Below are positions 1,672 to 40,362 of a stretch of 64,000 bases of DNA, piece after piece; positions within the stretch are counted from its first letter, which is position 1, and each line of letters starts with the position of its first letter. The notes beneath the pieces were generated by a model. It was not told the origin of the DNA. It saw nothing but the letters and a program-made list of their open reading frames with translations, and searched no databases. Origin of the DNA: Lophium mytilinum (Eukaryota); assembly GCA_010093605.1 (NCBI GenBank), contig MU004201.1, positions 439,106 to 503,105 on the forward strand. Reading direction: 5' to 3'. Position numbers and translations under genes: made by a program.

Positions 1672-1834
1672 GAAATGAAGGCTTCCTTGGGAGTTTTGAA
1701 AACCGAGGGACAAGCCGAGTCCCAGACAAAAGCGATGTCCTTCTTAGCGAGGCGGTTAGGGGGGGCAGCGATGCGTAAGAAGTAGCTAGCTTATAGAAGT
1801 TTTACGTTTCGTGCGTTCTCCTATTGCTAAACAG

Positions 1835-16559: not shown

Positions 16560-18125
16560 GGGTTGCCGCTAATAATAACGTGGAGAAGGGTAGCTTCTCG
16601 AGCTTCTTAATGCCTCGCTTAGCGATTATCTTGGATGAGATATGGTCGACGTATTAGATTTATCCGCATTATTAATAAAGATTTGCAGGTCGAATATGGG
16701 TGGAGTAGGCTTAAAAGAGGCCTTGGGCCGGGCGTCGTGGTGGGTGTTTTAGCGTAAACCTTAAGCGTGCAGATGGGATGGTCACCGTTAACGTATTGGA
16801 AGTTGTCCGCATTCTCAACAAAGGTTCGCAGGCCGAAGGCGGGTGGTGTAGGCTTGAAAGAAGCCTTGTGACTGTGAGCGGGCATTGTGATGGGTGTGTT
16901 GAGGGGCTTGCCGCCAATAATAACGTGGAGAAGGACTAGCTTCTTAAATATCTTAATACTTTACTTGACGATTATCTTGTATAAAACACGGTATTGGAAG
17001 TTATCCGCATTTTCAACAAAGGATCGCAGGTCGATGTTGGGTGGTATAGGCTCGAGAAAGGCCTTGCTCGAAAGAGGCCTTGGGCCTGCGAGCGAGCGTT
17101 GTAATAGATGTATTGGCGCAAACCTTAATCGTGCAGAGGGATAGTTACGCTTGTTGCTTGGCAGGTCGAAGTCGGGAAGTATAGGTTTGAAAGAGGCCTT
17201 AGGCCTGCGAGCGGGCATTGTGATGGGGGTGTTGGCGCAAACCTTAATTGTGCAGAGGGATGGTTACGCTTATTGCATGGCAGGTCGAAGTCGGGTAGTA
17301 TAGGTTCGAAAGAGGCCTTAGGCCTGCGAGCGGGCATCGTGATAAGGGTGTTGGCGTAAACCTTAGGCGTGCAGAGGGATTATAACAATTGTCGCATTGC
17401 GGTTAAGATCGGGTAGTATAGGTTTAAAAGAGGCCTTGGGCCTGCGAGCGGGCATTGTGATGAGGGTGTTGGCGTAAACCTCAGGCGTGCAGAGGGATTA
17501 TGACAATTGTCGCATCGCGGTCGAGATCGAGTGGTATGGGCTCGAAAGAGGCCTTGACCGCGAGAGGGCATCGTACTGGGTATTGGCGTAAACCTTAGGC
17601 GTGCAGAGGGATTATAACAATTGTCGCATCGCGGTCGAGATCGGGTGGTGTAGGCTCGAAAGAGGCCTTGACCGCGAGAGGGCATTGTACTAGGTGGTCG
17701 GCGCAAACCTTAAGCGTGCAGAGGGGATGGTTGCAGTTGTAGTCGAAGTCGGGTGGTATTGGCTCGAACGAGGCCTTGACCGCGAGAGGGCATCATACTG
17801 GGTGGTCGGCGCAAACCTTAAGCGTGCAGAGGGGATGGTTGCAGTTGTAGTCGAGGTTGGGTGGTATTGGCTCGAACGAGGCCTTGACCGCGAGAGGGCA
17901 TCATACTGGGTGGTCGGCGCAAACCTTAAGCGTGCAGAGGGGATGGTTGCAGTTGTAGTCGAGGTTGGGTGGTATTGGCTCGAACGAGGCCTTGACCGCG
18001 AGAGGGCATTATACTGGGTGGTCGGCGCAAACCTCAAGCTTGCAGAGGGCTTAGTCATAGTTATGGTCTACGAGCAGGTATTATGGTGGGTGTATCGACA
18101 TAAACCTCAAGCGTGCACAGAAATT
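16560..18125 (+). repeat. Tandem array of 108-119 bp units (about 11 copies), with longer composite units at its left end
   Basis: Core GGCGYAAACCTYAAGCGTGCAGAGG at 16751, 17115, 17234, 17353, 17471, 17585, 17700, 17808, 17916, 18024 and ~18098. Confidence 0.95.
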
Positions 18126-18459
18126 TACCTAGGCCGCCAATTTTGAGGTGGGTTGGTTCGTTTATGTGGCGGATGTCCGAAGGCGCACGCCTACGGTGGT
18201 CTATTAGCACCAAAAGTGCAACAATCCGATCTTAAAAATAGAAGTAATAGACCACCGTACACCCTACAGGCGCGTGGATTTTTAGCCGGCGGGAGCGGGG
18301 AATTTAGGCACGTGGGCGCCTAAATTCCTGCCCGGGGTTTCCAATACTCAACGAGTCAGTCCCACCTAAGTGTGTACTACGACATGAGCGCTAGAGGCAT
18401 GCCGTCGCTTGCGCAGGCAGACACTAGATGCTTCACGCCATGACGGCCTCGATGCGACA

Positions 18460-18750
18460 ACTGTGACTATCTCCGCCGCACGCTTAAGGGTTACGCCGAT
18501 AAACCCACACTACGATGCCCGCTCGCAGGCCCAAGCCTTCTTTCAAGCCTATACCACTTAACTTCGACCTGCGAACCTAAGACCTTCTCCATATTGTTAT
18601 TATTAAGACACCCGCTTGGAGGCCCAAGGCCTCCCTTAAGCCTACACCACCCGACTCCGACCTATGAACCTTTAGTGAGAACGCAAACAGCTTCACTACG
18701 TTGACCCTATCTTATACGAGATAACCGCTGAGCAGGGTATTGAGAAAATA
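18460..18750 (-). repeat. Inverted arm of the 16560-18125 array
   Basis: The reverse complement aligns to array units, and its outer end matches ~16605-16660. Confidence 0.85.
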
Positions 18751-19454
18751 GCGGTATAGAGGCAGCAGCAGGACATGGTGCCCGTCCTTTCTTCCCGTGC
18801 TGCTTTTAATTGTTTAGATGCGCCGTTGCTAACGTGCTTCGAGAGTGCAGGCCCTCTAAATACTACCCCTCTTTGTCCTTAACTACCCCTTTATTCTTTA
18901 TACCTCGATACACGTCCTCCGTGCCTCCATGCACCAGTCGACCCTCACGCCTTACCTCTCTAATCAGCGTAGTATCGCACAAGGGCAGGTGTCTTGAATC
19001 GCCGTTGGGGAGAGGTCCGTCCTCCGCTCCATCTCCGCAAAACCTCGCGGCGGCTTTATACCTGCGCCTAGCCTCAGCCAACCCTTCACTACGCTCTTTA
19101 CCGAGTCCTGCGATGCGACATCTGGAACCATCGGCTCTGTACGCTTAAGGTTTACGCCAACACACCCACTATAATGCCAGCTTGCAGGCCTAAGGCCTCT
19201 TTCGAGCCTATACCACCCATGGCGGGAAAGGGGGAGGGATGGGGTATTGCTAGTCTCGAGTCGAGCGCTGGCGGCATGCCGTCCCTCGGAAGCAGCGGGA
19301 AGGCTGAATACTTTTGGGGCGGAACGCTGGGCAGCTGGGCAAGAATAGCAGAGCTAGACGTGGGAGGCGACGGGGCCAACTAGCCCGTGCCGAGCCTAGT
19401 TAAAACATTACGCCGCGCTAAACAAGGCGGATCTGGAGTTCATCACGCCAGCCC

Positions 19455-20105
19455 GTTTCTGTTTCGGCGGTCGCCCTCCACTACGCTTTGCGGTTTACTT
19501 CACTGGCGTGAGACCTGAAGCGTGCAGAGAGAGTGTCCTAAGCGAAGGCTGTGAAGCCGATAGCGTTCAAAGAGAGTATCCTAAGTAAAGGCCTGCCAGC
19601 TTAAGCCGAGTTTAAGAAGAGCTAAACGTAAAAGCCCTTGTCTTCCCTATTCTCTTCATTTCTCTCTGCTTCAGCTGCGTTGTTGACTTGTGTGTTGGTT
19701 TAGAGCTGGGCATTTTTATATCTTGCCAGTCTTCTAGCAGATTCTATTCTTTGAGAAAGTCCTGGATGCCTTTTAGCATGCGTTGTGGGTGTTGCTATAC
19801 TCTTGATTGGATTACCTAGCCGGTGTTAAAGAAGCGGACGATACACCGGGCCATGGCACGTCCAGGTCGCTCTTCCTCTGTATACGCCGGTGACGACGCT
19901 ATGGAAGCCTGTTTATGTTTCGGTGGTCGCCCTTAACCACGGTTCACGATTTGGCTTACTGGTGTGAAACCTAAAGCGTTCAGGAAGGGTCTCTAAGCGA
20001 AGACCTGTTTCTATTTTAATGGTCGCCCTTAGTCACGCTTTGCGGTCTGGTTCGCTGGTGTGAAACCTGAAGCGTTCTGGGAAGGGCGTCCTAAGTAAAG
20101 GCCTA
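19455..20105 (+). repeat. Three ~95-bp related units (19455-19550, 19915-20005, 20005-20105) sharing the array core motif
   Basis: GGTCGCCCT..CTGG[CT]GTGA[AG]ACCT[AG]AAGCGT..CTAAG is repeated. Confidence 0.8.
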
Positions 20106-21103
20106 CTAACCTTTGCCTTTGGTGCAGGCGCAACGCCCGGTATTTCGCCACCACTGTCACTTTCCGAGGAGCCCGACAGCTGCACTCCCGCTGGTCCACT
20201 GGATTTACGGTTCCTATTCGTCGAGATTGGAGCAACTCTTTTAGCCCGGGTATTCGACTTCGGGGTGCTGCTTTATGGTTGTTGGGAAGCTGCCACGGAT
20301 ACAATCTTGATCTTCCGACCCGCCATTCCACGCCTTAAGCGCTGGCGGCGCGCCGTCGCTTGCGCAGGCGAACGAAAGCCTCCGATGGCAACGCGGTATC
20401 ACACTGAGGGTATCACCCCCAGGGCATGGGGAGGGGGTTAGCAGGTAGCTGCACGATTACGGTACCGTCGTCCAAATCATGGTGTTTCAAAGTGCATCGT
20501 GTTAAAAGTCTATCTTGTCAAACGTTCATCTCGTTAAAGTTCATTTCGTTGAAAATTTAATTTTATTAAACTACCACTTGAAACAAAATCCGCGAACGTT
20601 AAGAGTATCTCCGAGGAGCACGATAGCCCCATCGTGCGGATACAGCACCACTTCCTCTCCCCATCCCCTCCCTTGCCCAGCTGTGCCTGTCCCGCCGCCG
20701 CCCAGCGTCTTGTCCCGAAGGCATCCAGCCCGCCGCCGCTAATCGTGAACAACGGCATGCCCTTACCGTCGCTCAAGTTGAACCCGACAGGAATCCCATA
20801 CATAGAATACTGCTTGTGGTCCGCAAACATTAATCCACGATTCTCGTCGAGGATTGCCGATTCTCAGCGATTGGGGGCTAAATCTACTAATGTTAAGCAT
20901 TCAACGAAGCCTTTAGTAGCAGTGTTGATGCGTGGCAGTGTTAACATGTAGCAGTTAATGTTTGGAAATGTAAAGCTGGAGGGTGGGCGTTGAGCTGCTT
21001 TAGTGCGATGAAGGACTGTAAATGCTAGTTTCGCGACTTACTTGCACTCTTTCTACTTAACCTCCTCGGGCTCATTAAATATGATATTGATACCGAGTTC
21101 CAC

Positions 21104-21750
21104 TATGCTCGCCTGGATGCTATTAACGCTTTTAACGCGGATTCCACGGCCATGAAACGTCTCACTTCTTCCCTTGCTAAGTTGCCCGATCTGGAGCGAC
21201 TGATTTCCTTACTATGCTTGGGCCGTCTTGCATTAATCCTCTTTTTGCATTAGGATTCCCTGCCTCATCTTTGCAAGCAACTCCGTTCGCATCCTACGTC
21301 ACCGCTATCTTGTCCCCGTCTCTACGCCCAAGAATTCTCTCCAAAGCAACGCCAACATGCCCGAAGATGGAAGCTAGCCTGCGCGGCACTCGTCCATCTG
21401 CATCCGCAGCAACTTAGAGCAGCGCGGAGAGCACTTCCCCATATTGTTGTTTCAAAAGCGCTTATCTACGTCAACCCATGGCTAATAAACCCAACAATCG
21501 CGGCGGCCGCCAGCGGCGCGAGCCGATGCAAAGCTAAAGCCTTTTTGAAAGTCGTGGAAAAGACTTCGAACAAATTGAGTACACTATAACCCTTTCGAAC
21601 TCTTTTGCGGAAGGGGATGGCGTTACTAGCCGACTTATATCCTGAATGCCCAAGCTGACCGGCACACTTAGAAAGTGGAAGTCTGTCTTTAACCTAGAGA
21701 AGGCAAAGTCGGACGGCGTTCTAGTTCCGGAACCCGGCGTCGAACGTGAT
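21104..21750 (+). pseudogene. MSH6: MSH6 internal fragments (core/lever region), split by a ~310-bp unrelated insert at ~21209-21519
   Basis: ARLDAINAFNADSTAMKRLTSSLAKLPDLERLIS, then RCKAKAFLKVVE..FEQIEYTITLSNSFAEGDGVTSRLIS*MPKL..WKSVFNLEKAKSDGVLVPEPGVERD. Matches fungal MSH6 as I recall it. Confidence 0.85.
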
Positions 21751-22030
21751 ACCGCGAAGCTCCCTCATTAACTCGGATGCGCATGCGCTTCTCGCGGTCT
21801 TGGGACGCATCTTGAATTCTCTCGCAAGGCTGCGATAATGGATGGTTGAGAACCCGACGCAGCCAACGCGAGTAGTGACGTTGTGGAGGACGGCCTAGAC
21901 AACAGCGACACTATTGCAGGATAAGGTGCTGCAGCCGAGCTCGTCGACGATAAAAAGAGAGCGCGGAGTCGCTTCGGAGAGGATCTTTTGGATCTCTGCG
22001 AGTTCGATAAAGGAGGTTAACTAGGCAGTA
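21742..22030 (-). pseudogene. MSH6: MSH6 ATPase-domain fragment, inverted
   Basis: TSFIELAEIQKILSEATPRSLFIVDELGCSTLSCNSVAVV*AVLHNV..VGCVGFSTIHYRSLAREF corresponds to the MutS STFxVEL..DELGRGT..FATHY region. Confidence 0.92.
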
Positions 22031-22952
22031 CACCACCAACCTAAATAGCAGTTATACGTTAATATTGACGCTTGCATGTAAGGTTGTTAGTGCACCACGC
22101 TATTGAGGATGCGTCGCTAGTCTAAGAATTGAAGCGTGTTCCGCACGTCGGGTTCAATTCTAAGATAAAGATGCGTCTTAATTCCATCTCCTTCATCTCG
22201 CGTTTCTTCCTAGTGACTTGCTTTGCAGCACTTAGGAGTCTCTTAAGCTTATTCCCATAGCATAATGCAATTTGGGCGAGCTAAGTAACAGCAGAACGAT
22301 ACTTATATGGCTCACCGTTGCCAATCCTATTCCTATTTATACTAGCTACGGTCTGCTACCATATCTAAAACATCCCTAACTGCCCTCGCTCCTCGCTCCT
22401 CGTCACTCACTTCCGCTGGCATCCGCTAGCCTCCTCTTGTACCTTAAGCTGCCCTTATTTCTTATCGCCCACTTCCGCTGGCAGTTTGCCCTACTCCTCC
22501 CGCACCTCAATCTCTCTATAAGTCCCCTTCTTAATACCCCACAGGCTATAATATACCTTCTAGGTTACTGCGCAGTCTATAATAGTATTTCTTAGAAAGT
22601 GCAGCCATTTATGTACTCTAATCGCTCCTTATACAGGCTGTAACATAGTATATTCCCTGTACTCTTAACTCTCCATGTGCTATAAAGTGTCTTAGATTGC
22701 TATATACAATATAGTGTACATATAGTAGGGCTATAGTAGCCCTATATTAGTAGCAGGGCTGTGCTAGCCCCCTTATAGGCGTTTATTAGGGTTGTAATAG
22801 TTATGGGGGTAGAGCCCCCCCATTGGTGGGGGCAGACCCACCCTATTAGTGGGGGCGAATCTACCCCACCCTATAAAAGATTTTCTCTACAACCTCTGCA
22901 TGAAAATTCTGCGCTCTCACCTTCTACTATACATTGTTTACTTCTTGCTACC

Positions 22953-24330
22953 ATGGCTGAAGAAGATGATTCTCCTTGGCTCACTGCGTTTAAGCTTAGG
23001 GCCCTTAACTTCCTAAATACCCTATGTCTACGGTGCAAGACACAGCTCTAAGATCACTATAAGCACTTTAAAAATTGTCGTAAGATGCTAGATAGCGACG
23101 TGGTAACGCCTATAAAGTGCCGGTACTGCTACACATTAACTAAGGATGCTATATCACACTGGGACATCTGCGCCGTTTGGATAAGGCAAGTTATTTCTGC
23201 CACGAAAGATGACTGGACTAAGGCTATCCAGCAGAAGGTAGACTAGAAGCATCTCCTTCCCCTTAAAAACGCGGAATTGGAACATTGGAACGGTAAATTA
23301 CTACAGCTTATTCCATGGGAATAGTCTGCAGATGGCGAGATTATGGATTTGGCTCTTTATAATCTCTCTAACACCACCTAGGTCTACAAAGTAGGCACAC
23401 ACAACGTTTATGTAGGCAAAACCCACCATATCTAGAATAGCTTTTGTTATGCCGACGCACCTGTCTTCTATGCTATTAACATTAACATTGGGGAGGAGTA
23501 TTATGTTAGCATCCCAGCAGTTATTAAATCTATCCAACATCCTAACTTCTCCCGCTACTACTAAGGAATTAATATTACTCCTAAAGGAACCTTTGTGGAT
23601 CTCCATATTGGTTAGTATTACCTTTACTACTTACTTTAGATTAGGAACTAATGTCTACGCTTAGATTATAGGCAAGATGCGTACAGTGTTGGGCTCTAGG
23701 GATGTATTAAACTCTAGATTCTCTACCCTGCCACCTTCAGCAACCTTAAAGCCTTCTACGCTGTTAGCCTAGATGAGACCAACAAGCTACTTGCCCTTTG
23801 CAATGGCTAACTCAGCAACGGCGCCTATAAAGTAACTTTGCCATCTGAAGGAATCTATATACTACCTGGCTGTATCTATACAACCTACACTATTGCCTCG
23901 GGTATTATCTTTGGCAGCAACTGGACCTCTGCTGAGAGTTTAGATGTATGTGCTTTAGTCCTTATCCATAAAATTAAGAATGGTACTGCAGAGCTAGGTG
24001 CGCTATCCACCTTCAGTGCAAGCCTGGTAGGGAGCATCAAGCATAGAGGCAATTGGAAAGACACTCTTAGTAGGTTCTGTCCGCAACCTCCAGGCTAAGG
24101 GGGAAGAAGTTGAACGCAAAAGGAGGCTAGCAGTAACTCTAGGGCTAAAGGTTAGGTACAGGAGGCACTTTAAGCCCTAGGTGCTTTACTAAAGCAGGAT
24201 TAGACTTGCTCTAAGTGCAAGAAGCTATATACAGCGCACCTTGGGTTTACACTTAGGGTAAGTAGCTTTTATATAATCTAACACCTGCTCTATTTACTAA
24301 CTTATACGGTTAGGGCACGGAAAAGAAATA
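22953..24330 (+). pseudogene. JmjC/cupin 2OG-Fe(II) domain protein with N- and C-terminal CxxC motifs, RIP-inactivated
   Basis: TPKGTFVDLHI|D (HxD formed across the GT-AG intron 23611-23664), KL*ILYP, and GIYILPGCIYTTYT (distal His CAT->TAT). One frame with only TAA/TAG stops. Confidence 0.8.
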
Positions 24331-25784
24331 CACTATCTTTCTACCCTAGGGGTGGATGGATGAGCGATTTCATATAAATAGGGAGAGTAGTAGCTTTAAA
24401 TACGGTTTCCATACAGGTGGCTCCTTTTCAACTGCCCTAACTTGGCAGTAGAGCATAGTAAATGCACTATGGAGCAATTATTATCGCGTTTAGTGTAATA
24501 GACTGGAGGTTACTTCGAAAAACCCCGTATATATACACGGGTAACACGCATACATTACTTTGCTTTCGTGTGACCTAACTATTCGCATCTGACAAGTTTG
24601 TCTAATCCAACTGCTTAGTCCGAGGCTAAGAGCAACGCCAGGAGTACCTAATGATGAAAGAGTTATTTACTATACCTGCTCTACCCGAGTCGCCACGTTG
24701 AGCTGTCCATGCGACCGATACTGCCGTCCCGAGTCTAGACTCTATCCTAGAAGCATCGAGAAACACATTGAGAAACTCAACCACCCCTTGAAGGAGGAGA
24801 ACCATCAGTTCCAACGACCTAATCCTGGAGGCGTACGACAGTACTCAGCAGAAGATTGTTTCATGAGCCCTTGACTGTGTTTGACAGAGAGCACGTGCGA
24901 TTGCTCGCGACCGGCAACTCACAGTCGAAGTTAATAATGTTATTGGACTGAAGACTATTTGCACGGAAGCCGCATAGAGGCACCTAAAAAAGGCTTTAGA
25001 CTGGATCTATCTTCTACTTAGACCGCGAGGATCTAAGGTTATAGATGATCCTAGCAGCCTAGCGCTCTAGTGGCTGGATTTGATGTAGATATATAATGGG
25101 TTAAGGATAGTGTTTTAACGTTTGTAAGGTTTAGAAGTCTACAATTCTCGGCTTATACTCTCTTTACAATGCAAGATTACAAAATCTATACGGCGCATGA
25201 TGTATACGTTACTTACGCTTAGTTACATGCTTACTAGAGGTGCTCCTCGATTTGTCTTTTAGAAAGCTCACCCGCCCATAACCCAACATTCTCTTTGACG
25301 ATAGATGGGGGAGAGGAGGGATAATGAGAGTAGAGGGAGGGGAGGGTCCAAAACTTCTCGAACAACTCTTACATGGTAGTCCTGGTTTAAAATAGAAGCA
25401 CCTAAAATGGAATAGGAGGGGGGAGGAGAGTTAGACCCTCCGAGATTACGGTGTTATGGCACCGTGGCTTAAACCGAGCGCGAAAACAATATATGGGGAG
25501 TGGTGGAGTAGAGGAACAACGTAAGAAGGACTGCAAGGCCATGACACTGCATGAAGACGTGATGCTGAACTGCATCCTGCTCGTTACCGATACCCGTTAC
25601 CTTGTTACGATAGCAAACACAACCACCACTATAGCATACTGTTAGGAGATGGAATTTTAACTTATTCTTTCCGTTTTACTTGGCCTACAGCCGAGCTATT
25701 GGGGGCCGGCCATGAATTTTCACGCCCTTCATTAACCTTATCGCCATTCTTATTGCTATCCTTATCGCCGTCCCCATTGCCAGC

Positions 25785-26180
25785 ATGGCCAATCCTTATC
25801 CTCAACTCCCTGTCAACCTCCTGCTTAGTGCTCAACTACGCGCGGCACCTGTTACCTAGAATGTGATCCTCGCTCCAGGTTAATTAATCTAGATCGGGAT
25901 ATTAATGTTGATATTACTATATATCGCGTCGAGGTGACGGCGTATATACAGTGCTGTAAGAGGACCAGGGCTCCGTAGAATATAAAGCAGCGCACCATGT
26001 ATACATGGGACTAGGTGAGGACATTCGGCCTGCAGATAAAGAGTCTACCAATCAGCCAGACTTCTATTACTGCTACCTTTGCGAAACGCTGAAGCGAAAG
26101 CAAGATCTCCTCGTTGTTTCTAAAGGCATAACGATAGCTATGGACCATCTTAAGAGGGTGTACAAGATAGATAAGGAGAC
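25785..26180 (+). mobile_element. hAT transposase 5' remnant (BED-like zinc finger)
   Basis: GEDIRP..FYYCYLCETLKRKQDLLVVSKGITIAMDHLKRVYKIDKETG is typical of the N-terminus of fungal hAT transposases. Confidence 0.7.
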
Positions 26181-27079
26181 GGGCAAGCTGCACACGTTTA
26201 GGAGCTCATGCTTAGTAGATCGCGTGGATCTAAGGCCTTATCTAGCCTAGCCCAGTCCTATCACGTTACTGGATTCGGAATAGCAGACCGCGCATGTTAT
26301 AGACGTAGAGTTGTGGCCTCACAAATGCTGGGGGCGAATTGACTCGCTGTCACAACGGGGCGCTTTAAAGTGGTGTAAAGGAGTATATATTGCGTAGAGC
26401 GGTGTTAAAGAATAGGCCTTAAAGGCAGTAAAACTAAATAGCTTTACTTAGTCTTTCTGTCTGTTACCTTACCGTCATGCCGTGTCTAACACCGCAAAGC
26501 TTACTCCTGGATGCTTCTACATGTAGGTACGTACAAGGTAAACTATAGGCAATTGGATTCGTGACTGCGCAGCCACTCGTCCCTTCCCGTACCATCGTCC
26601 CGAGGAAAGTGAGAGTGCCTCTTGGTGTGGCCCAATTTGGTAATTAGCGGTGTGATATTCTCGAATCACGTAATGTAAGAATTTGGAGGACAATAGATGT
26701 CGATTCTATGTAGGAAAGCGTTCCTTTAGTAGATCTATACATCACGTGCACGACATCTAAATATTAACCGTATATCGAGAATTCCATACCGGTTGGGGCG
26801 TGGAGAAAATATTGCTGCCATCCGAATAAGGTATAGCGCTGATAGTTAATTTTGACTATTAGCGCTAAGCAAGCTACCTCGGCATCCAAACGCTTGGCAA
26901 ACCTCCCCCCCATCACCGTTGTAGGTAGGCCGTCAGGGCTGTCCGCCTAGCATCCACCTTAGTCCACATCCTCCACACCCCTCCCGGCCATCATCCGCCA
27001 ACGTCTCAAAATTACCCTCTTCTCCCCCCATCGCCCCACTCGCCGCTCCCCGTGCGCATTTCTATTTGTATAGAGGTTC

Positions 27080-28200
27080 GTCCAGTTTATACTATTGACG
27101 TCCTCTATGTTATCATTCTCCGTCTGTTTCTAAGCCCCCGTCACGGTATCGTATACCTCTGCATCCCCGAGGAATCCCGTTTCATACGCACTAGCTGCGT
27201 CCTCCCGCAGCTTATTCTCTTTATCTTCCTCGGCGGCCCCAGTTCCCGTATCGTTCTCTTCTGCTTCCCTGATTAAACTCCACGATTCCCTAGACTCTCT
27301 ACATCTTGACATCCAGCGAATCTAAGCAGTACTGAACCCCCGCCACAGCCTGTCCCTGTCCCGATTTACTTTCCGTGGCGAGATCGCGAAAATGATTTTT
27401 AAGGTTGATGGGGTGTTCAGAAATAGCGCTGGGGAAAGCTTTCCAGCTTCCGGTGTCCAAGTGTAGTTGTAGGCACCCATGGCGCTTTTTAGACAACCTT
27501 AATTCCTCTTTAATTGCCACACACGGACGTTCTAGATCCAACGCTGTGGAAATATTGGGGTTAAGTCGGAGAGATTAGTGCAGCTAAATCCCATGCGCTT
27601 CGAGGCGGAGGAGGACTCCGTCCCCGTGGCATCGCTCCTCTTGCGCTTCCTTAATGCCGCTGGCTTATCTTTCTTAATAAGTTTTGTAGTAAGTGGATCT
27701 TTACTTGTACAATTTTGCACTTCTTGCTTGAGAAGCCTGACTATAGATTCGCTTTCAACATGCATAGCTTTCTAGAAGAATATTTAAGCAGGGGTTAGCA
27801 ACTATTTAAACCGAATGTTAATAACCATACTATATTTAGAAACCTCAACGCTATTATTGAGTCGTACAAGACATTAGGCCATTGCACGCCCTTCTAAGAC
27901 CGTCGCAATTCTCTCCCTACGCCTGTCGAAGCCCTTAGACCTTTAAGTAAACCACCTAGATATTCTATTAACGCTCTTTATCTCTATTCCACCCCTATTA
28001 ACTCGTGTTTCCATTTATTATGGACACCCAAAGCACTCACTCGGATGATTCCGATCTCGTCGATAGAGATGTCTGAAGCTTGGTGACCGAGTAGGAGAGG
28101 GCGCGCATTTACGATTTAGAACAACGTTCTTACACTCTTAACTTGCTGCTTTAACTAGATTAGTAAGTTCAGCTAGCGCAAAGCAGTGACAAAATCGCTA
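27080..28200 (-). mobile_element. Probable hAT transposase 3' remnant
   Basis: Degenerate motifs in hAT order: ETRVN (cf. TRWNS), YSMVINIRFK (cf. LDPRFK), RDLA..FSTA (cf. dimerisation domain ERxFS), then an acidic tail. Confidence 0.45.
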
Positions 28201-28473
28201 GCCTAATCTGTGCTTAGGAATGTGATCTATAGATGTACTTCTACTTAAGATTATTAATCTTGTCCATCTGAGTAATGAGGTTGCGGTAGTAGAGGCAATT
28301 GATAGGAACTTGTTCCGAAATAAATTTGGCAATAACCTGTTGGATTATGATAATTACTTACAGCAATTAATGCTAGTAGCATACAGGGTCGCTCCATGTA
28401 CATAACGTAGCGTCCTAACTTAATATTAGACGCTACGGCCTGCAATCTACAGGTAATGAGCCCGGTTTCGTTT

Positions 28474-28975
28474 AACGTTGCCGCCTAAGCCTTAGGTTGT
28501 CCGCCCGTTCCCACTGCAGGGTGTTACTAGCAGATCCTTACGTCCACCATCATTAGCATGCTTCCCTCAATGCCTTCTTTAATGCACTTCCTAGATGCAT
28601 ATTAGCCATCGCGATATAGGATACCCGCTATTACTATAAGACGTTAGTTATTATTACAGGTTGTCAGCTATCATTAATACCGGACGATTAGAGAAGCGGC
28701 ATCTGGTGGTGAGGATGGATGAGAGAATTATTTGGTATCGATGATGGCTGACAAGCTGTGATGATGACTAACAGCTTGTGACAATGGCTGGTATCCTATA
28801 GCGATGGCGGTATCCTGTAATGATGGCTGATTGCATCTAGAGAGGGGATCTAGAAAGTGCATCTAGTAATGCATTGAAGAAGGCATTAGAGAAGCATACT
28901 CATGACGGACGTAAAAAGCTGCTTGTAACACCCTGCCGGAACGGGCGGACGACAGGAGGCTCAGGTAGCAGCGTT
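28474..28975. repeat. ~500-bp long inverted repeat (foldback/MITE-like) with ~50-bp loop
   Basis: 28474-28683 pairs with 28733-28975 (e.g. GTCCGCCCGTTCC..GCAGGGTGTTAC vs GTAACACCCTGC..GGAACGGGCGGAC). No TSD is evident. Confidence 0.88.
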
Positions 28976-30869
28976 TTGATTGCTGTGGGTGATTATTATA
29001 TTCCAACACATGGCAGGTAGAAGTGCGGCAGATGATGTTGTCCACCTTTATATTATTCTCTTCCTTGCCGAGGCCACCGTGGTCCATTGTGTTGAAGAAT
29101 TTGACGAAGATCGAGGGCTTCTTCATTATTAGCTGAAGATGTTAGCCACCGATGGCGATGATTCGCCTGATCAGGGATCCATTATGCGACCGAACGTCCA
29201 CTGCTACTTTTTCTATTAGCATGTTAATTGGCATGTTTGGCCTCTCACCCCCATTTCTAGCACGGTCCCCGCCTTTTTGAACGTCCATGTCAATGTCTGA
29301 CATTGCCTAGTTGACATTGTTTATTCCCTTTATCCGTTGCACTCTGTCTGGGTGCACCTCCGCCGTAGCTCCTCCACCAACTGGAAGGTTGCAATGGAAA
29401 GGGTTTCTTTAAGAGATCCGCTCTGTGACTGCGTAGTGACCCGCTCCGTAACCACGTGATTACTTATCTCTTTCCGTTGGTGGAAGTACTTAGGCACGTG
29501 ACTTTTGCAGCAACTATGGATAAGCCACCGCCGCCACTACATGTACCTAGCCTTATTCTTAACTCTAAACCTATAGCCTACATCTAAAGCAACTCTCACT
29601 ATAAGCAACTCTTACTATGAAAGAGCTGCCGCTGCTAGTTTATGCGCCTAGCTTTGTCTCCCGTTACGTGCAGGCCTCTTCTGTAGTATATATAGGCGAT
29701 GCGCCTCGAGTTAAATATTGTTAAGGATTCACCTCAACCTCCATCCCTTTCCATCATGCGGGGCAAATTAAAAATGCCCCTTGGGTTGCCTACTGCTCCT
29801 ATTAACGCTTCTCTTTCTTTTAAGCTTTGAAGACCCCTGGTCTCGGTAGCTTCGGACGGCGCACGCTGGATCGATTTTGTTTATGCTGAGGTTGTTTTGG
29901 CTGTTCTTCTAAGACTTCTGTTTCTTGGAGGAGTCTAGCCGACCTGGGCTGCCCTTATTAGCTTTAGGCAGCGCACGCTGGTTCGATCTTGTCCATGCTG
30001 AGGACGTTCTAACTTTTCTTTTGCAACTTTTGTTTCCTGGAGGTGTCTGACCGACTTAGGGTATAGTTCTGAAAGCTTACTATAGTACTCTTGACGTCTA
30101 TAATAGTTCTCCAGCCTGTACTACCTTTAACTTTAGTTGTTAGGCGGTATGTACTGCATTAAGCTGTGTTCTAAAGTGAGACCCAAGGAATTATCAACAC
30201 TATTTCCTGTGATCTTGAGCTTCTCGGTTGCCGTTCTGAATAGGATGACATCATCCGGGATTCCCTGAGCACGCCTCGCCTGCTGTGTTATTATTACTCT
30301 TGGTTCTCTCCGATGGAGGACCTAGCCGACATACTTACATGTAGGATTGAAACTAGTTACGATTTTTGGAAACAGTCTATCCGGTCGTACGCGTCCATAT
30401 GATGTTCCAGCTGACTCTTTAGCGTGTTGGATGTGTTTCTTGCGATAGAATGGGGGCATGAGTATACTATTACGCCCGCTCTTCTCATTAGACTCAGTTA
30501 TCTCCTCTAATGTCGTCTTAGGGTGGTGGCCTGATGTGGTAATAGGCCAGTCGGAGAAGTTAACTCCTCTGCTCTCTCCTCGTTATCGGCGCGCGCTGTT
30601 CGATTTTTCCAGTCCATATTATTGACATCCTCCATGTTATTTATTATTCTCTATCTATTTCTAAGTCCCGGCCCCCCCGGCCCCATTATGGTATTGTGTG
30701 CTTCTGCATTACTGGGAAATTTTATATCATCCGCACCGGCTGCGTTCTTGCAAGGGTCATTCTGTTTATCTTACTTGATTCTTTCCGTTCCATACATCTT
30801 AAGCCTGGCTTTTCTACATTATGTTTCGCTTTTAACCACCTTACCCCTCCTACCCTCTAGTCTTTACAT

Positions 30870-31720
30870 GGATACCTGCTCATAGAACCACGCTGGAAAT
30901 CCACTCCTCCTAGAATTTAGGCCCCTCTCTATCGCCACCAGCTCTAACCTGATGCCATATCCCAAGACCGCCCGAAACATTTGGGCAAGGCCCTTCCCCT
31001 CGTGGAATCCATCCACCAGATTTGGATGCCATGCTTCTCAGCTGTATAAACTACCTACTTAGTCTTGTTGTCCTTTTCCCCTCTCTAGCAAGCACTCATT
31101 AGAAAAGCGCACTATGCGCCGTGGGAATGCCCTTATGTCTCATATTTAATGGCCGCCTAGAAAATTCAAGTAAGGTTCTTTTGCTCTTAGAATCGTTATC
31201 TAGCTTCGGGTGCCATGCTTCTTTAGCTGTGCGAAATGTCTAGTTGGTTCCTTACCTCTTTCCGCTCTCTATTAAGGACTCACCAGAATAGCGCACTATG
31301 GGCCATGGGTATGCCTTTATTTCTCTCTAACTGCGGCCTGATGATGAGTCAGGTTAGCTTTACCTCCTTCTCGGCCCTTCTCTTGGGCACCCTGTTGCGC
31401 TTCAGCACTCGATAGAAAGTTGATCTTGACACCTTCTTGATGCGCTGAAGTATGGCGATAGCCTAGTCTGTTAGGTCAGCATTCTTGGTTTTGGGGAAAA
31501 CCTTCTTTTGTTTGCCCTTAAAAGCGAACAGTGGGCCCGTATATGGAAGAGACTTGATTATGCTATTAAAGTCCCATTGATGGACAATCTCGTGGATATT
31601 TAGCGGCAGACATCACGCAGCGTTTTGATATCTTTCTTAGGAACATCCTCTTCGACAGTAGTAAGAGAATACTGCTGCGCCGTGTCTTTAAGAGCTCTTG
31701 GCCTCTCTGTCTATTGCTAG
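30870..31720 (-). mobile_element. Tc1/mariner (impala-like) transposase remnant with internal tandem duplication
   Basis: KVSRSTFYRVLKRN..RAEKEVKLT, then VR[YF]S[GN]E..ERGK..EAWHP twice, then MFRAVLGYGIRLELVAIE..GF. Truncated before the later catalytic residues. Confidence 0.8.
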
Positions 31721-31999
31721 ACACATTGTGCCAAAGCGGTGCTTTATGGCTGTGTGGTGTAATAATGGAGGTGGAAACGGTGATTTAGCGCTGAACTGCG
31801 ATGGACGCAAATTAGTAACATTTTACTATACCTATATCTCTCACCTTTTATATATAAATAAACTTCAGTCTTTGCGTCTTAGTTCTTGTCTTATACGGTC
31901 CAGCGTTGTTATTTGGTCTAGTCGCGCCGCGCGCGGTGGCTGCTCTCATCTAGACTACTAAGCGTAATGTACTAATGTAGTGTGGGGACAGCGGATATA

Positions 32000-32800
32000 G
32001 GGAGGGTTAGGGGTGGTGTAAAAAGGGTTACAGAGATGGTGTAAAAGTGTATAGAAGGGGTGGAAAGGGCTTGGGCAATATATAAAGGTTTTAGATGCTA
32101 AATGGGGGATAGTAATCTCTAAGGACTTGAAGGGCGTTTAGGCGATGTAAGTTGGCGTGAATTAGCGTGTGTAGAGTTTAGGGTGGTATAGTAGAGATGC
32201 GGAGGTGGTGTAAACGTATCTAATAGCGGTGGATAGGTTTTAGGCGATGTATAAAGGTTTGCAGGCTAAATTAGGGGTGGTGATCTCTAGAGACTTGAAG
32301 GGCATTTGGGCGATGTGTGTAGGCGTGTGTCGGCGTGTGTAGGGTTAGGGGAGGTGGATTTAAGGTGTATTGAAATGTTGGGAAGGGTTTAATGAGACAT
32401 GGAACGATTTTAGGCGATGTATAAAAGGTGTTAAGGCTAAATAGGGCCTGGTAATCTCTAAGGACCTAAAGCGCTTTGGGTAATATGGTAGGTGTGTGTC
32501 GACGTGCGTGGGGCTGGGGGCGGTACTTTAAAGTAATATGGAAGTGATAGAGAGAGTGTAAAGAGATGTGGAAAAGGTTTAGGCGATATATAGAGATTTG
32601 TGGGCTAAATAGGGCTGTAGTGATTTCTAAGGTCTTAAAGGGCATTTAAGCGACGTAGATAGGCGTGAATCGGCGTGTATAGGGTTGGGTGACTTAGGGT
32701 AAAGGTACATAGAAGTGGGGGAAGGGGTTTAAAGAGATGTTGAACCGATTTAGGTAATATTTGGAGGTTTAGTGGCCAAATGGGGGGTGGTGACCTTAAC
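32000..32800 (+). repeat. G-rich tandem array, period ~170 bp, ~4.5 copies
   Basis: GG[CT][AG]AT[AG]T.T..AG..GCTAAAT.GGG anchors at 32074, 32243, 32413, 32582 and 32753. Confidence 0.88.
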
Positions 32801-32899
32801 GCACTAAAAGGGCCTGCTTCCTTAACAAGAAATCCAATCTATCTTAATACCTTATTAACTTATAATCTTAATAGTATCTAATACACCATACTATTAGAA

Positions 32900-33500
32900 A
32901 GTGTAGAAAGGTAATGTCCCAGACACTGAGTCTTGCTAAAGTTCAAGGGGCAAACCCGGAATCTGCTTTCCTACGTCTATTCCCCAACTACCGGTTGCAT
33001 ATAGGTAGAACACAAGGAGTAGCTAGATCTAGAAACTAACTAGGAGCTTCTAAGGCTTTAGGCGCTTTGCACTTGTGGTCGTGAAATGTAATGTAAAATG
33101 GGTGTTGAAATCGCCCCAGTTTAGGGGCAAGCCCGGCATCTCTATTTTTACATCCATTTTCCACCACATCTCACATCCACGAGTTAGAAATACTTAAAAC
33201 TCAAGGAGCCATTACATATAGGAAACAACTAGGAGCTGCTAAGGTTTTAAGCATTTCTAACTTGTAGTTGTAAAATTTGGTGGAAAATAGGCGTTGAAAT
33301 CCCCCCAGTCCAAGGGCAAAACCAGGATCCCGCTCTCTTACGCTTGTTTCTCAATCCACGGTCGCATATGCGTAATAATTTGTAAGCTGCTAGGCCTAGG
33401 TATTATCTTAGACGTTCTTAATATTTAGACAGTTTCAATCGGTGGTTACAAATTGCGAGTGTGAAAGTAAATCTCTAGTTTCAACACCCCTAGAACCTCC
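32900..33500 (+). repeat. Tandem array, period ~177-189 bp, ~3 copies
   Basis: GGGCAA..CC.G.ATC anchors at ~32947, 33124 and 33313; AACTAGGAGCT.CTAAGG is repeated. Confidence 0.75.
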
Positions 33501-33789
33501 CCACAACTTTAAGATACCTTAATATCCCCGCCTTAGAGTCTCGCCACTTAGAGACTCTATTAACACGCTAACAATTTCTTATTCTTAGAATCTTCACATC
33601 CACACTTACAGTAAAGAGGCAGAGTGAACGCAAGCAACTTGCCCCTCTACAAGACCCCTATACGCACAAATCGCTACCATAACACGCCCTCGCCGTATCC
33701 TAACCCTCCGCATCGCTCAGAGTCCATCTACCGCTGCACGCACGGAACCACAACATCGTAATGCATACGAACTAGCTGTAGTCAAGCAT

Positions 33790-34500
33790 ATAGCGCCCAC
33801 GACGGCCTACTTTCTAGCGTTATCGCCTCGCATAACTCGGAGTTTGGATGACTGGTTTGGCGCCGCATACGCGCGATGCGCTGATTGGGTACTTATACAC
33901 TAAGAAGATGCGTAATGGCAATAGTAGAGACTTTAGTACTGGGTTGGGTTTTAAAGGTCCTTTGAGACGGCTGAGAAATCTACCGCTTTCCAGCATTATC
34001 ACCTCGCATAACTCGGAGTTCTAATGCGAGTCTAGCGCCGCACACGCGTAATTCGCTAATGGGGAACTCAAGTACTGAGGAGATGTTTGTTGGAGAATGC
34101 GGAGGTGTCGATGATAAGTTTGGTTTTAAGGGTTCCTCGAGAAGGCTTAAAATCTACGGCTTTCCAGCATTATCGCCTTACATGACTTGGAGTTCTGTAG
34201 ACTAGTTTGGCGCCGCACACGCGTGATGTGCTGATAGGAAACTTACATACTAAGAAGATGCGTGATAGAAAATACAGAGGTGTCGATGATAAATTTAGTT
34301 CCGAGGGTTCCTTGAGACGGCTGAGAATCTACCGCTTTCCAGCATTATTGCCTCGCATTCCTTACTTTGGCGCCCCATACGCGTGATATGCTGATGGTAA
34401 CCTCGAGCACTAAGAAGGTGCATGATGGTGATAGTAGACGTATTGATAATAAGTCGGGATTCGGGGTCCTTTAAAACTGCGTGAGAGAGTTAATGGCGAG
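33790..34500 (+). repeat. Tandem array, period ~175 bp, 4 copies
   Basis: TTAT[CT][AG]CCT..CAT..GCGCC.CA.ACGCG anchors at 33820, 33996, 34170 and 34345. Confidence 0.9.
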
Positions 34501-35159
34501 GGCGGGTGTAGGTAGGATAGAACGCGGAGATAGGCTACTTGCGCACGATGTCTCCCCGCCTCTAATAAGCGAGCGGAGAGGTGCTTTAAGTGCGGAGATA
34601 GATGGTGGAGCAAAGGTCGCTAGATTATTGACGTTGGATGGAGCATGGGCGCATGAGGACTCTTCGCGATATTTGCCCCGAGCTTCTAAAGACCGATATT
34701 GAGCTGAAGGGGGTGGAGGTCTTACATCTTGATATCTCGTTTTAAGAAGCCTAGTAATGCTAATCTGAGTGGAACCACCATCGGTTTATGGTAGTGTAAG
34801 GGATGGTCTTCCTTCGTGACATCTTGCTTTGAGAATCCGGCGCGATCCTAATTAAATTGGAATTAACGCCGTTCATGGCAGGGCATGGGGTGGTCTTGCA
34901 TCGTGCTATCTCGCTTTAGGAACCTGGAGTAATACTGTTCTATCTGGGAATACTACTGTTTGGGCGGTGGCGGTCTTGCTGGCGACGGGAATAGTGCGAG
35001 GAGCGTTGAGCTTGACAAGTAAACGCTTACCTGGACAAAGCGAGTCGGCTGTTGAAAGAGCGGAGGCGCACTTACGCATAAGACAGCACTGTCGGCAGGA
35101 ATTCAGGTGCTGAGAGCGACACTGTTCTTGATGTAATACCAAATGCATTTCTATTTAGG

Positions 35160-35335
35160 TCTATCTGGGTTTGCTCCCTGGGAAAGAAGAAGAAGTAAGA
35201 AATAGAAACGCGAGGTATGCTCCCTGGGATGAAGCAGAAAGACAAACGCCAGGTATGCTCCCTGAAAATGCAGACGGAATGAAAAGAGAAACGCTAGGTA
35301 TGCTTCCTGAAAATGCAGATAGAATAAAAAAGGAG
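35160..35335 (+). repeat. Short tandem repeat of ~40-46 bp units
   Basis: AAACGC.AGGTATGCT.CCTG occurs three times. Confidence 0.8.
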
Positions 35336-35417
35336 ATGTGTGGCCGTGGTATAAAATAGGTCCTTCTTTAACACATCCAAGCCACCCAATAAGTCCCCCT
35401 CGAGTGCACACTAATGT

Positions 35418-36430
35418 TCACGGTACTACGGTTAAGTTGCACGTCCTACCGTTTAATTGAGACTGTATCTTTGACACTCGGTCTGTTAATATAACGATGA
35501 ACGCGTCCTTCATCCTGTCTGCTCGACGATTTGTCCACTCCACGATGGACAACCCTCGCTCGGCAGGGCGATATTGTAGATTTGAAAAGAACCTGGCATG
35601 CGCCGTAGCTATACGAGTCGGATAGACTACAACCGGAGCCCAGCGCAGCTTGAAAGTCGCTAAAGTAGAATGGCCGCCAATAAGGCTTGCCAGATACTTT
35701 ACACTGGTAGACGCTTTCCAGATCTTCTTGTAGGCGTGAGACAAGTTAATATACTCCGCCGGGGGGATACTATTGAATGTGGGGTTGGTACAGTAAAAGT
35801 TAAGCGAATGTTTAGTTAATACGGCCAAAAGATTAATTTCCATGGCAAGGTGCTTTAATCTCTGTAGTCCGTGGCAAAGAAACATCGTTAATCGCCTAAA
35901 GGTATAGACACGGTCTTTGTCCTTTCTTCTAGCATGAACAGGCTGTTGGAATGGAGCTGCAACCGTAATATCTAGACGTCTTAGCTGGTTCCTAAGCGGG
36001 GGTATACGGCGCAACTTGCGTACAACTGCGTGGACGTGTGCATGAGGTTCAACGCCCGGCATTATATCCGCAACTTGGAGATGGAGAACTATATCCCCAT
36101 TATCTACTAGTTCCGGGGCCGCTGTTGTTATACCGGCCAGGGCATCACCGATGATCTCAAGGGCTGCGGTTAACTTGCAACATTTAACTTCGGTCCGCAG
36201 TGGGGTCCCCAAGACTTCTTGCCATATAAGGCCCCGAATCTCGGGCGGGAATAATTCGGTAAATTCCAACACGGTCCGAACTAGGTAATGCCAAAGTTAA
36301 TACTATATTGCAAGTAGCGGGGCTTTACCAGCCTTAAAACGGAACACTTACCTAGACGCTTAATCCCCCTTCGTGGTTCCCTGGTGTTTGACTCTGGTGG
36401 ATGTGCGCTGCCGAGTTCGAGGCTAGACAT
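35418..36430 (-). CDS. Apparently intact two-exon gene, 313 aa, F-box-like motif protein
   Basis: ATG at 36430. Intron 36281-36351 (GTAAGT..TTAAC..TAG) splices in frame to the 284-aa ORF. FTELFPPEIRGLIWQEVL is an F-box-like LPxEIRxxIW motif. Confidence 0.7.
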
Positions 36431-37249
36431 GATTGGTGGAAGGTAGAGAGGCAGACTAATACTTCGTTGTGGTCTTTCGGCTGCGCAATATGGAATTCCG
36501 GATTCAGATGGCGGATCCGAGTTAGTGAGTGGATTCGATATATTTGCAGCTCAGCGTTCGATATACAAACTTCCTAGGGTTTGGTGCTGGTCTGCCTTAG
36601 TACGATGGAGTAATAATGTCTCCCTAGCTGCGGACTCTTTATAGGTTGAGGACTGATGTTTAAGAAAAGACGTAGCTAGCAGACAGGACGGAAGATATAT
36701 ACTATGTTAAATTAAAGGTTTTGCATCTAAGCTCTAGTTTAGCGGCGAGACAGGCAGCAGATTATCCGCACGAATCCGATTACCTGCCATGTATCGTTGC
36801 ACAGCAGTTAACATTTACCGCGTATAGCTCTTACACCTGTCATGTATTACTGCACAGCAGTCTTTCCAGCTCCCAGGTCTTTATCGCAGCCGTGTCTAGT
36901 TATCGTTACTCTACAACTTGGAGTCTGGTACGCTAATTTAGCGCGACCAGAGGGTGAGGCTGGTTGCAGGGTGCTAATAAAGGCTATAGATGTGCAATAT
37001 TCTTGGCGTAGCTGCCCGAGCTCGATAGGCAAGCACCCGGTGGAAGTGAGCTCTCACGTTGGCGGGGGCTGCACGCTAATCTTCCTAAAGGGCCTGCTTC
37101 TCTCGTGGATTTATTATACGGGCAGCACTTTGCGGAACTCGGTGGTTAGCCCCTTAGGCTCTAGTAAAATGATTTCCCGCTTAAGGTTACAATTGTGGCC
37201 ATTGTAGGTGTAGATGAGAGCAGAAAGATTGCTGAGGTTTAAACCGATG

Positions 37250-37950
37250 CTAGTACAAGCTTGTGCGCCTGATCGCAAAGCTTAAGCCTTGCAGCCTTGC
37301 AGCCTTGCAGGGCTTGCACGGCATGCCGAGCGAATGTCTCTTTTTGAAGTATTGCAGCACGCTACGGAGGGTGGAAGTCCGATCCGGGATACGATGAGAC
37401 GCGCAACAGCGGGGGAGCGGGTGAGATTCTAGGAGAGATGAGGTCTGCAACGAAAAGCGATGCAGAGCCTAAGGCTGCAGTTCGCCGAGGTGTGGTGGCA
37501 TAGGCTGTGCCTCCGCAAGTTTAGAGCCGTGACACACCTGCAGACTTCGGCCTCTACCTAGACGCTCTTAGCTTTTCACACCCAATAAGTATAATTCTTC
37601 CCAAGGTTGGTCCCTGGCGGACTTGGCCTAAAGCAATTCAAGCTGCACGCAATATTGGCCTAGACTTATGTAACTATTCGTCATCGTCGAGGCATTACAG
37701 ATGTGGCGGGCGCAGGCATCGGGGTATTGAGCTTGAAGTACCAGCGGGGAAAGCTAGACCCATAGCTTAATGGGTGTGGGCGTTGTGACAGCTCGGGATG
37801 CAGGAGAAGAGAATGTATTGTATTGATGTTCTTGTGAGGAAGCTATCCGGGCGACGCGGAGGAAAAGTATGCACGCAAGCTGCAGGGTAAGCGGCTGAAG
37901 CAGTGCGGCCAAGGATGGTGTATGGCGCTGTGATGGTGGCAATGAGGCGT
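37250..37950 (-). pseudogene. Decayed gene fragment, possibly DUF3505 (telomere-linked RecQ-associated) type
   Basis: Weak motif resemblance only (YTILGR..ACVHT; PDAC..YISLGQYC; QPW..GVKS*ER). Confidence 0.25.
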
Positions 37951-39499: not shown

Positions 39500-39728
39500 C
39501 CCTTATCGTGTTGTGCTAGAGGGGTGCTATAGCCGTGGTTAATGAGGCTGGCGATTCCGCCGGTGGCGTAGGATCTACCGTCTTACTTATATAGGCTAAG
39601 CGTGACCGTACCAATCTAGTTTAAGCAGTTCAATCTAAAAATCTAATTAATTAAGCTTTATTCTATATATATCAACCCAATCAAGCTGCTACCTAGTTAA
39701 GCCGGCCGCCGGTTTAGTAACCACGCTG
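39500..39728 (-). mobile_element. Left end of a second member of the 1139-1671 hAT family
   Basis: GCCGGCCGCCGGTTTAGTAACCACGCTG ends at 39728, and its reverse complement aligns with 1139-~1385. Confidence 0.88.
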
Positions 39729-39882
39729 CCGTACGGTAAAGAGGACCTCGAAAGAATGCGCCTAATGACAGCATCCGGATTCCGCTTCTTATTCAACTTC
39801 TTTAACTCCCGTCTCCCCAGCTTCCACTTTCCACCTTACGTCTCTAATTCGCCCATGCAATTCGCCCATTATTACAGCAATC

Positions 39883-40147
39883 ACGGTCCGGGGCATTAAA
39901 GGCAACGAGATGTCAACCCCAAAACCTCCAAGCTCAAGAGAGCCGCCTCTGGCTCGCAGTCTGCCAATAACCAGAAGCCCGTCTTGGATTTCTCCCGGAA
40001 GAAGACGGATACTAGCTCCAGCTCTGCTCCGGCCTCTTTACTACTGGAACCCACTTCTATAAAGAAGGAGACACCATTAATTGGTAGCAGGAAGGACCCC
40101 TCAGTCCGCAGGACAGCCGCGGCGGCCTTGACACTGGCCCCGAGCAC
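39883..40147 (+). pseudogene. MSH6: Probable MSH6 N-terminal fragment with degenerate PCNA-binding PIP box
   Basis: ..STPK..SKLKRAASGSQSANNQKPVLDFSRKK..LTLAPS resembles the fungal MSH6 N-terminus (NQKSILGFFQK..LTPxPSSD). Low-complexity region, so weaker than the other fragments. Confidence 0.55.
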
Positions 40148-40259
40148 AACGCGACGTATGCCAGATGGCAGACTGGCGGTAGAAGGCTATGGGGGTAGAC
40201 TGCTCCACGTTATCCTCGTTTAAAACACTTTATCTTGATATTTTAGGGGAGCTAGCCGT

Positions 40260-40362
40260 TCCCCTCTGCATGCTTGAGGTTTGCGCCGACACACCCACCA
40301 CGATGCCCGCTTGTAGGCTATAACTGTAACCATCCTCTCTGCACGCTTAAGGGTTGCGTCGA
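40260..40362 (-). repeat. Two dispersed inverted partial units of the 108-119 bp array family
   Basis: CTCTGCATGCTTGAGGTTTGCGCC and CTCTGCACGCTTAAGGGTTGCGTC. Confidence 0.85.

Follow-up and report, generated by a model that had tools for sequence, protein, structure and literature searches.

The window, a 64-kb stretch of DNA from Lophium mytilinum, is gene-poor, with only 22 stop-to-stop open reading frames (ORFs) of at least 120 aa. When the Msh6 protein of this fungus (P0003, 1207 aa) was compared with the window by tblastn, six tracts were matched with E-values of 3e-27 to 9e-11, far above chance in a 64-kb target.

21107-21226, plus strand: P0003 aa 670-709, 29/40 residues identical.
21518-21559, plus strand: P0003 aa 707-720, 11/14 identical.
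21565-21750, plus strand: P0003 aa 722-783, 47/62 identical, E 4e-24, with the C-terminal end PEPGVERD.
22017-21742, minus strand: P0003 aa 1023-1114, 57/92 identical, E 4e-25, with the end LRGITF.
39886-39942, plus strand: P0003 aa 2-20.
39918-40199, plus strand: P0003 aa 13-106, E 3e-27.

This search confirmed the sense and antisense MSH6 fragments that a preliminary description, made from the letters of the window, had placed at 21104..22030, and it added a patch 18 kb from this chimera, out of gene order, that the description had overlooked. When the antisense tract was translated through its TAG stop and used in a protein search, 108 of the 199 candidates were of MSH6 type, and the top named full-length matches were P0002 of Mytilinidion resinicola and P0003 itself (62-63% identity). 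The locus was divided into the following features.

21105..21208, plus strand: MSH6 piece A1, sense, codons ~670-703, MutS domain III region.
21209..21517, no strand: 309-bp insert, absent from the native gene, edges uncertain by about 20 bp.
21518..21744, plus strand: MSH6 piece A2, sense, codons 707-781.
21742..21750: junction 9-mer GAACGTGAT, reading E-R-D on the plus strand and I-T-F on the minus strand.
21742..22026, minus strand: MSH6 piece B, antisense, codons 1020-1114, MutS domain V.
39806..40145, plus strand: MSH6 piece N, sense, 80 bp of 5′ flank and codons 1 to ~88.

The window holds only codons ~1-88, ~670-783, and ~1020-1114 of the 1207, out of order, and tblastn at E-values up to 10 detected no remnant of codons ~89-669, 784-1019, or 1115-1207 in it. 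These three or four tracts (one inverted, one interrupted by the insert, one 18 kb away) contain three stops and no fewer than four frameshifts in total, and each has a stop or a frameshift. Two extra nucleotides are present in piece A2 at about 21560-21564, and TGA stands at 21643-21645, where the native codon is TCA (Ser). In piece B, TAG stops at 21895-21897 and 22021-22023 occupy positions of native Gln, and a −1 and a +1 frameshift lie between about 21750 and 21800, which is why the segment KRMRIRVNEG is found in another frame. Piece N has lost 1 nt at 39927 (the native gene has an additional C after this position). The Walker B region in piece B reads DELGCSTL in place of the native DELGRGTS, and the Walker A region is absent from the window, as no tblastn match was obtained N-terminal of aa 1020 in the ATPase part. 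Pfam matches of piece A1 to MutS_III (E 1.5e-4) and of piece B to MutS_V (E 9.2e-6) both fell under the cut-off, and a smaller six-frame read-through Pfam scan of 38801-40400 returned no family. There is no continuous ORF with MutS domains I-V, and the ATPase motifs are not intact; the relic encodes nothing, and no function is indicated.

We then aligned contigs from three runs, X1 and X2 (both DNA, from one sample, each containing the stretch in full) and X3, to positions 20500-40400 at a likeness of at least 80%. A second contig, distinct from those of the window itself (21.8 kb in X1 and 46.8 kb in X2), matched all the MSH6 tracts collinearly and represents the native gene.

Window 39806-40077 (piece N): native contig 46280-46539, 36 differences and 14 gap letters.
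Window 21105-21207 (piece A1): native contig 44068-44170, 12 differences over 103 positions.
Window 21560-21744 (piece A2): native contig 43833-44017, 36 differences over 185 positions.
Window 21798-22026 (piece B): native contig 42827-43055, opposite strand to the other pieces, 44 differences over 229 positions.

Among the pieces, only piece B is inverted in the window relative to the native order, as had been proposed. The two junction sites lie on one strand of the native gene, 331 codons or about 1.06 kb of DNA apart, in agreement with the earlier estimate of hundreds of codons on the same strand. All 13 changed codons that could be read from the differences listed for 21591-21711 reverted to the P0003 residue in the native sequence. 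In X3, a contig of 3838 nt carried the MSH6 tracts in the same order as the native DNA and was shorter than it by 63 nt between pieces A and B and by about 300 nt between pieces N and A, indicating that it is spliced and that native MSH6 is transcribed. The corresponding native introns account for 63 nt of the interval from codon ~784 to codon ~1019 and for about 300 nt of that from codon ~88 to codon ~669. P0003 is a full-length Msh6 with five MutS domains, encoded on a 2.85-Mb contig, whereas the window ORF at 35421-36296 corresponds to L. mytilinum P0113, located on a 614-kb contig; the window and the intact MSH6 therefore belong to different scaffolds. An intact and expressed MSH6 thus resides on another scaffold, and the window locus is neither the native gene nor an assembly chimera. 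The parent gene is retained elsewhere, and the copy in the window is disabled by stops and frameshifts, as in a pseudogene.

The junction itself was recovered in two assemblies: contigs of 8717 nt in both X1 and X2 span 20500-26696 with no differences from the window, and the junction was accordingly present in the reads of that sample, which is probably the one behind the genome assembly, so that these contigs are not independent of it. The depths of the bins across 20500-22491 equal the sum of the window's own contig and the native MSH6 contig exactly (for example, 80.1 + 155.3 × 259/664 = 140.7), and across 20500-26475 the only coverage at a likeness of at least 80% came from the window's own contig and, where there are MSH6 tracts, from the native MSH6 contig. 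From this exact match, the chimera, like its flanks, is single copy at an identity of at least 80%; the copy count called for in the preliminary description thus came to no other genomic copy at that level, as judged by contig depth. X3 had no contig on 22492-26475, and its only contig touching 20500-22491 was that of native MSH6; likewise, no RNA run was listed as containing the chimera. Neither observation bears on expression.

Against native DNA the pieces show 80-88% identity, and all tracts have diverged by about 16-20%; with all aligned DNA combined, 128 of 789 positions differed, not counting gaps (about 84% identity), and the native residue was kept in 206 of 293 codons. Among 73 single-step replacements we counted 22 G>A, 15.3 C>T, 12 A>G, 10 T>C, and about 13.6 transversions, so that transitions make up 81% of the inferred replacement changes; these counts are approximate, because two blocks overlap by a few codons and a frameshifted stretch was read in one frame. 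The 38 differences listed for the MSH6 tracts comprised 30 transitions and 8 transversions (window versus native: C/T 10, T/C 7, A/G 7, and G/A 6). The bin 20001-22000 had a TpA/ApT ratio of 0.91 and a (CpA+TpG)/(ApC+GpT) ratio of 1.12, which we take to be no RIP profile by the usual thresholds. Since transitions occurred in both directions, the pattern is unlike the one-directional one expected from RIP of the copy. No clear RIP signature was therefore detected in the MSH6 pieces by context, direction, or local indices. RIP-mutated duplicates in Dothideomycetes (PMC12910237) are comparable in that the MSH6 mosaic, too, is duplicated sequence dominated by transitions, in an ascomycete with relatives that show RIP; the mosaic differs in that its changes are bidirectional, with only 14 of about 37 inferred GC-to-AT replacements (approximate) in CpA/TpG context.

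P0003 and P0002 differ at 14 positions covered by the pieces; of these, the relic agreed with P0003 at eight, with P0002 at three, and with neither at three. This agreement points to a copy made in the host lineage after its split from Mytilinidion, long ago, and bears out the earlier assignment of the pieces to the host's own MSH6.

The insert that splits the sense piece, put at ~310 bp in the preliminary description, measures 309 bp and replaces about three codons (aa 704-706) of MSH6. Between 21207 and 21560 the window has 352 bases, as compared with 50 in both the native DNA (X1 and X2) and the spliced contig (X3); since the same 50 letters are found in DNA and spliced transcript, the insert is not an intron. 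No terminal repeat or duplication was seen at its edges, and the depth arithmetic showed no other contig of the genome aligned to it at an identity of at least 80%.

Next, we examined the 9-bp microhomology on which the preliminary description had based its mechanism. The 9-mer is present as described, but the homology is not. Native site A, where the sense piece ends, reads PEPGVE-E-D in P0003, and the alignment of piece A2 to the native contig stops at GAA (21744). A regular expression located the site A motif in 82 of 95 full-length homologues (in 9 it matched nothing and in 4 it matched elsewhere), and the middle residue was E in 80 of the 82, G in one, D in one, and R in none. At site B, the corresponding site of the antisense piece, the 95 homologues had I-T-F in 91 cases, V-T-F in 2, and I-V-F in 1, with 1 not found. 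The middle codon of the window, CGT, is the reverse complement of ACG (the Thr of I-T-F), and its derivation from GAR would take three substitutions. In GAACGTGAT, GAA (21742-21744) is common to both parents and CGTGAT comes from the antisense piece (its T and I codons); the trailing GAT is merely similar to the native GAY, and no Leu codon, the residue next to I-T-F, has the preceding GTC (21739-21741, Val at site A) as its complement. Since E-E-D cannot be encoded by this 9-mer and the alignment ends at 21744, the shared stretch is at most 3 bp. The crossover thus lies within GAA, with 3 bp shared if the Phe codon is TTC and 2 bp if it is TTT, and what coincides at the 9-mer is two reading frames rather than two native 9-mers.

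A metagenome scan for MSH6 DNA of relatives gave 80 loci; the best reached no more than 86% identity to P0001, so that no contig of the Mytilinidiaceae was recovered. Of the 80, 17 had the site A motif, 22 that of site B, and 12 had both. At these 12 loci the native 9-mers of sites A and B agreed at 3-6 of 9 positions, and their first three bases were identical in 9 of the 12. Junction homology of at least 3 bp is expected in roughly 5% of random joins. An overlap of 3 bp could arise by ordinary end joining or by template switching alike.

Retroelement and satellite debris surrounds the MSH6 pieces.

16560..19220, no strand: minisatellite arrays of 108/119-bp units (self-blastn and TRF), 1.9 kb upstream of piece A1.
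39503..39727, minus strand: gypsy-like retroelement fragment immediately upstream of piece N, inverted relative to its counterpart at 1140-1384.
40260..40362, no strand: single 108/119-bp minisatellite unit, immediately downstream of piece N.

By self-blastn, the retroelement fragment matched 1140-1384 at 77% over 245 nt, in a bin of multi-copy depth, and the isolated satellite unit was 77-89% identical to units at 17.2-18.1 kb and 19135-19189. The common satellite suggests that the two MSH6 patches may once have been adjacent and were separated by a later rearrangement. The arrays upstream of piece A1 run in opposed orientations (16560-18120 and 18444-19220) and form an inverted structure of 2.6 kb. 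A decayed gypsy-like retroelement occupies the minus strand of window 1-5000, with RT_RNaseH_2 at 920-1216 (E 5.8e-10) and a gag-like DUF4939 at 4152-4907.

We also searched for a vehicle that could have carried the fragments. In 150 of the 165 ORFs of at least 75 aa, Pfam detected no transposase, Rep/helicase, or tyrosine-recombinase domain; only the RT_RNaseH_2 match passed the cut-off, the others being retroelement matches near 1-5 kb, apart from further weak matches that we took as chance. A search of 19300-24000 for short inverted pairs gave 18, of which a single 14-nt pair (21053-21066 / 22011-22024) encloses the chimera; it was rejected as a set of terminal repeats, as one arm is MSH6-derived and the pair is no better than others that evidently arose by chance. 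The flanking ORF at 20537-20863 (minus strand) had three matches at E ≤ 0.001 among 1.84 billion proteins; the two that were scanned were giant cadherin-repeat proteins, and we took the matches as motif-level chance and did not retain the ORF as a gene fragment. Rfam and tRNA scans of the window gave no matches.

The locus is very probably a dead mosaic of short segments of L. mytilinum MSH6, about 0.1-0.35 kb each, that were copied ectopically, rearranged, and left to decay. We propose that an ectopic DNA-level copy of MSH6, whole or partial, arose in the Lophium lineage once it had split from Mytilinidion, and that the copy was broken and rejoined, either during copying or later, by double-strand-break end joining or by replicative template switching. 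The end-joining route would comprise an inversion, deletions, and the insertion of filler. By either route, a tail-to-tail fusion (codon 781|1114) would have formed at GAA with at most 3 bp shared, the 309-bp filler would have been gained with the loss of about three codons, and the 5′ piece would have been separated; the relic would then have decayed neutrally. The 80 bp of 5′ flank that extend beyond the spliced contig are the one indication of an origin at the DNA level and a weak one, since RNA contigs can be truncated. Against the mosaic as a whole stands the scatter of its pieces over 19 kb, which could also reflect separate filler captures or the cargo of an element no longer recognizable. 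The locus is not a simple duplication, as the preliminary description had also held.

The mosaic can be compared with duplicated (non-processed) pseudogene fragments, or ‘gene relics’, in repeat-rich regions of fungal genomes. Like these, it is a partial copy of a host gene, probably made at the DNA level, has lost its coding capacity through stops and frameshifts, lies amid retroelement and satellite debris, and has a functional parent elsewhere. It differs in being unusually fragmented, with tracts of 0.1-0.35 kb of which one is inverted and one is 18 kb away, and in having a single-copy DNA-repair gene as its parent. A limited, word-based search of the literature, which was not exhaustive, found no MSH6 fragments of this kind in fungi.

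One form of this explanation, and the mechanism put forward in the preliminary description, is that the mosaic arose in a single event of template switching (FoSTeS/MMBIR-like), which we consider possible but doubtful. Synthesis would have followed the sense DNA of MSH6, passed to another template for 309 nt, and returned about 10 nt downstream; at GAA it would then have switched to the other strand at a point about 1.06 kb beyond, run in reverse for 285 nt, and exited. Consistent with such a path, the templated tracts are short (about 0.1-0.3 kb), the same template is re-entered about three codons from the exit, the inverted tract was drawn from nearby in the same gene, and 3 bp are common at the junction. 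In addition, no codons 784-1019 are found beyond 22026, whereas a simple inversion would leave a remnant there. However, roughly 5% of random joins would have homology of 3 bp or more, the 9 bp originally claimed are absent, no template for the insert was found at an identity of at least 80% in contigs of the same genome, and deletions during a long decay can mimic the pattern. The earlier interpretation is supported in part: the 9-bp basis is gone, and GAA, with at most 3 bp shared, is compatible with template switching and also with end joining. Described FoSTeS/MMBIR rearrangements share with the mosaic the short templated tracts from one locus, the strand change, and the few shared junction bases; here, by comparison, at most 3 bp are shared, and the event is so old that later deletions are inseparable from it. 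Template switching is mildly favored by the shortness of the tracts and by re-entry of the template about 10 nt from the exit. A single multi-switch replicative event and a stepwise series of inversion, deletion, and insertion cannot be separated.

A bolder version, which we regard as unlikely, holds that a single chromoanasynthesis-like event of multiple template switches joined MSH6 and other loci in a possibly hemizygous or accessory region. The latter element of this proposal comes from the k-mer depth of the window's own contigs, about half that of genic contigs. Were the proposal correct, such regions would be sinks that accumulate fragments of core genes.

Less probable still is that the pieces are the cargo of a decayed gene-fragment-capturing transposon (a Helitron, a Pack-MULE, or another Pack-TIR). 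Short pieces of one host gene in both orientations, beside retroelement and satellite debris, would suit such an element, and captures of this type are described for fungal Helitrons and Pack-TIRs (PMC4289320, PMC8277862). Like the mosaic, Pack-MULE, Pack-TIR, and Helitron captures are ectopic host gene fragments, at times several together and in either orientation; in contrast to them, no terminal inverted repeats, target-site duplication, Helitron or transposase protein, or second copy was found for the MSH6 mosaic. Its single-copy state at the 80% level, the lack of transposase, Rep, or helicase domains in the ORFs searched, the chance-level 14-nt pair as the only one of the 18 to frame the chimera, and the distance of 18 kb between pieces all argue against transposon cargo. 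The ‘capture’ of the preliminary description, in the sense of uptake by a mobile element, was accordingly not shown, in that the chimera is single copy, has no framing terminal repeats, and has no transposase nearby. We classify the locus as a duplicated, non-processed pseudogene mosaic, in which framing repeats and further copies, the Pack-TIR/Helitron features tested, were not found.

A processed pseudogene, that is, a retrocopy of MSH6 mRNA rearranged later, is very improbable. No retained piece contains an intron, as a retrocopy would predict, but the native introns fall between the pieces and no piece spans an exon junction, which leaves the missing introns without bearing. Moreover, no poly(A) tract was found beside the pieces, and piece N includes 80 bp upstream of the ATG that are absent from the near-full-length spliced contig, whose alignment to it starts only at 39885. 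An assembly chimera or a decayed native locus, the latter named in the preliminary description as the finding that would overturn it, can be dismissed with near certainty. Rearranged, repeat-flanked sequence may be misassembled, but separately assembled contigs of two runs reproduced 20500-26696 without a difference, and an intact, collinear MSH6 matching the spliced contig and full-length P0003 lies on another contig.

The locus matters little in itself, but it offers a clean, datable case in which a core single-copy repair gene has left dead, scrambled pieces of itself in a region of a fungal genome that is poor in genes. For annotation it counsels caution, as such relics give significant MutS matches and risk being miscalled as a second MSH6 or as a mobile-element capture. 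The junction, for its part, illustrates how microhomology can be overstated where reading frames seem to overlap. Of all the features, only the depth of the surrounding region, about half, might point to something new, namely hemizygosity or an accessory region in the sequenced isolate.

Several other observations were made in and around the locus. The window's own five contigs across 20500-40400 had k-mer depths of 80-89 in X1 and 65-87 in X2, and genic contigs were about twice as deep (native MSH6 155 and 140, another 164 and 128), where depth is not to be read as copy number. This could mean that the sequenced isolate is hemizygous here or that the region is accessory in it; alternatively, the genic contigs could each represent a collapsed pair. 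At 292 aa, the ORF at 35421-36296 (minus strand) is the longest in the window. It is 100% identical to the ‘hypothetical protein’ P0113 (313 aa), while 1665 candidates included no other homologue and no Pfam domain was detected; it is an orphan gene model located in decayed, single-copy DNA and perhaps not a real gene. A segment at ~39308-39400, possibly a piece of another host gene within this patchwork, aligned with three indels to a non-MSH6 contig of genic-level depth that was also present in X3; its translation gave nothing recognizable. Within 20500-40400, only 26476-30459 is strongly multi-copy (summed depth 400-650). This part, probably occupied by nested younger transposons, has rearrangement joints inside it and also matches in X3, the transcript-like run. 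Two more minisatellite arrays are present in single-copy DNA at 32003-32785 and 33810-34438, their units being 168/169 bp and 175 bp long.
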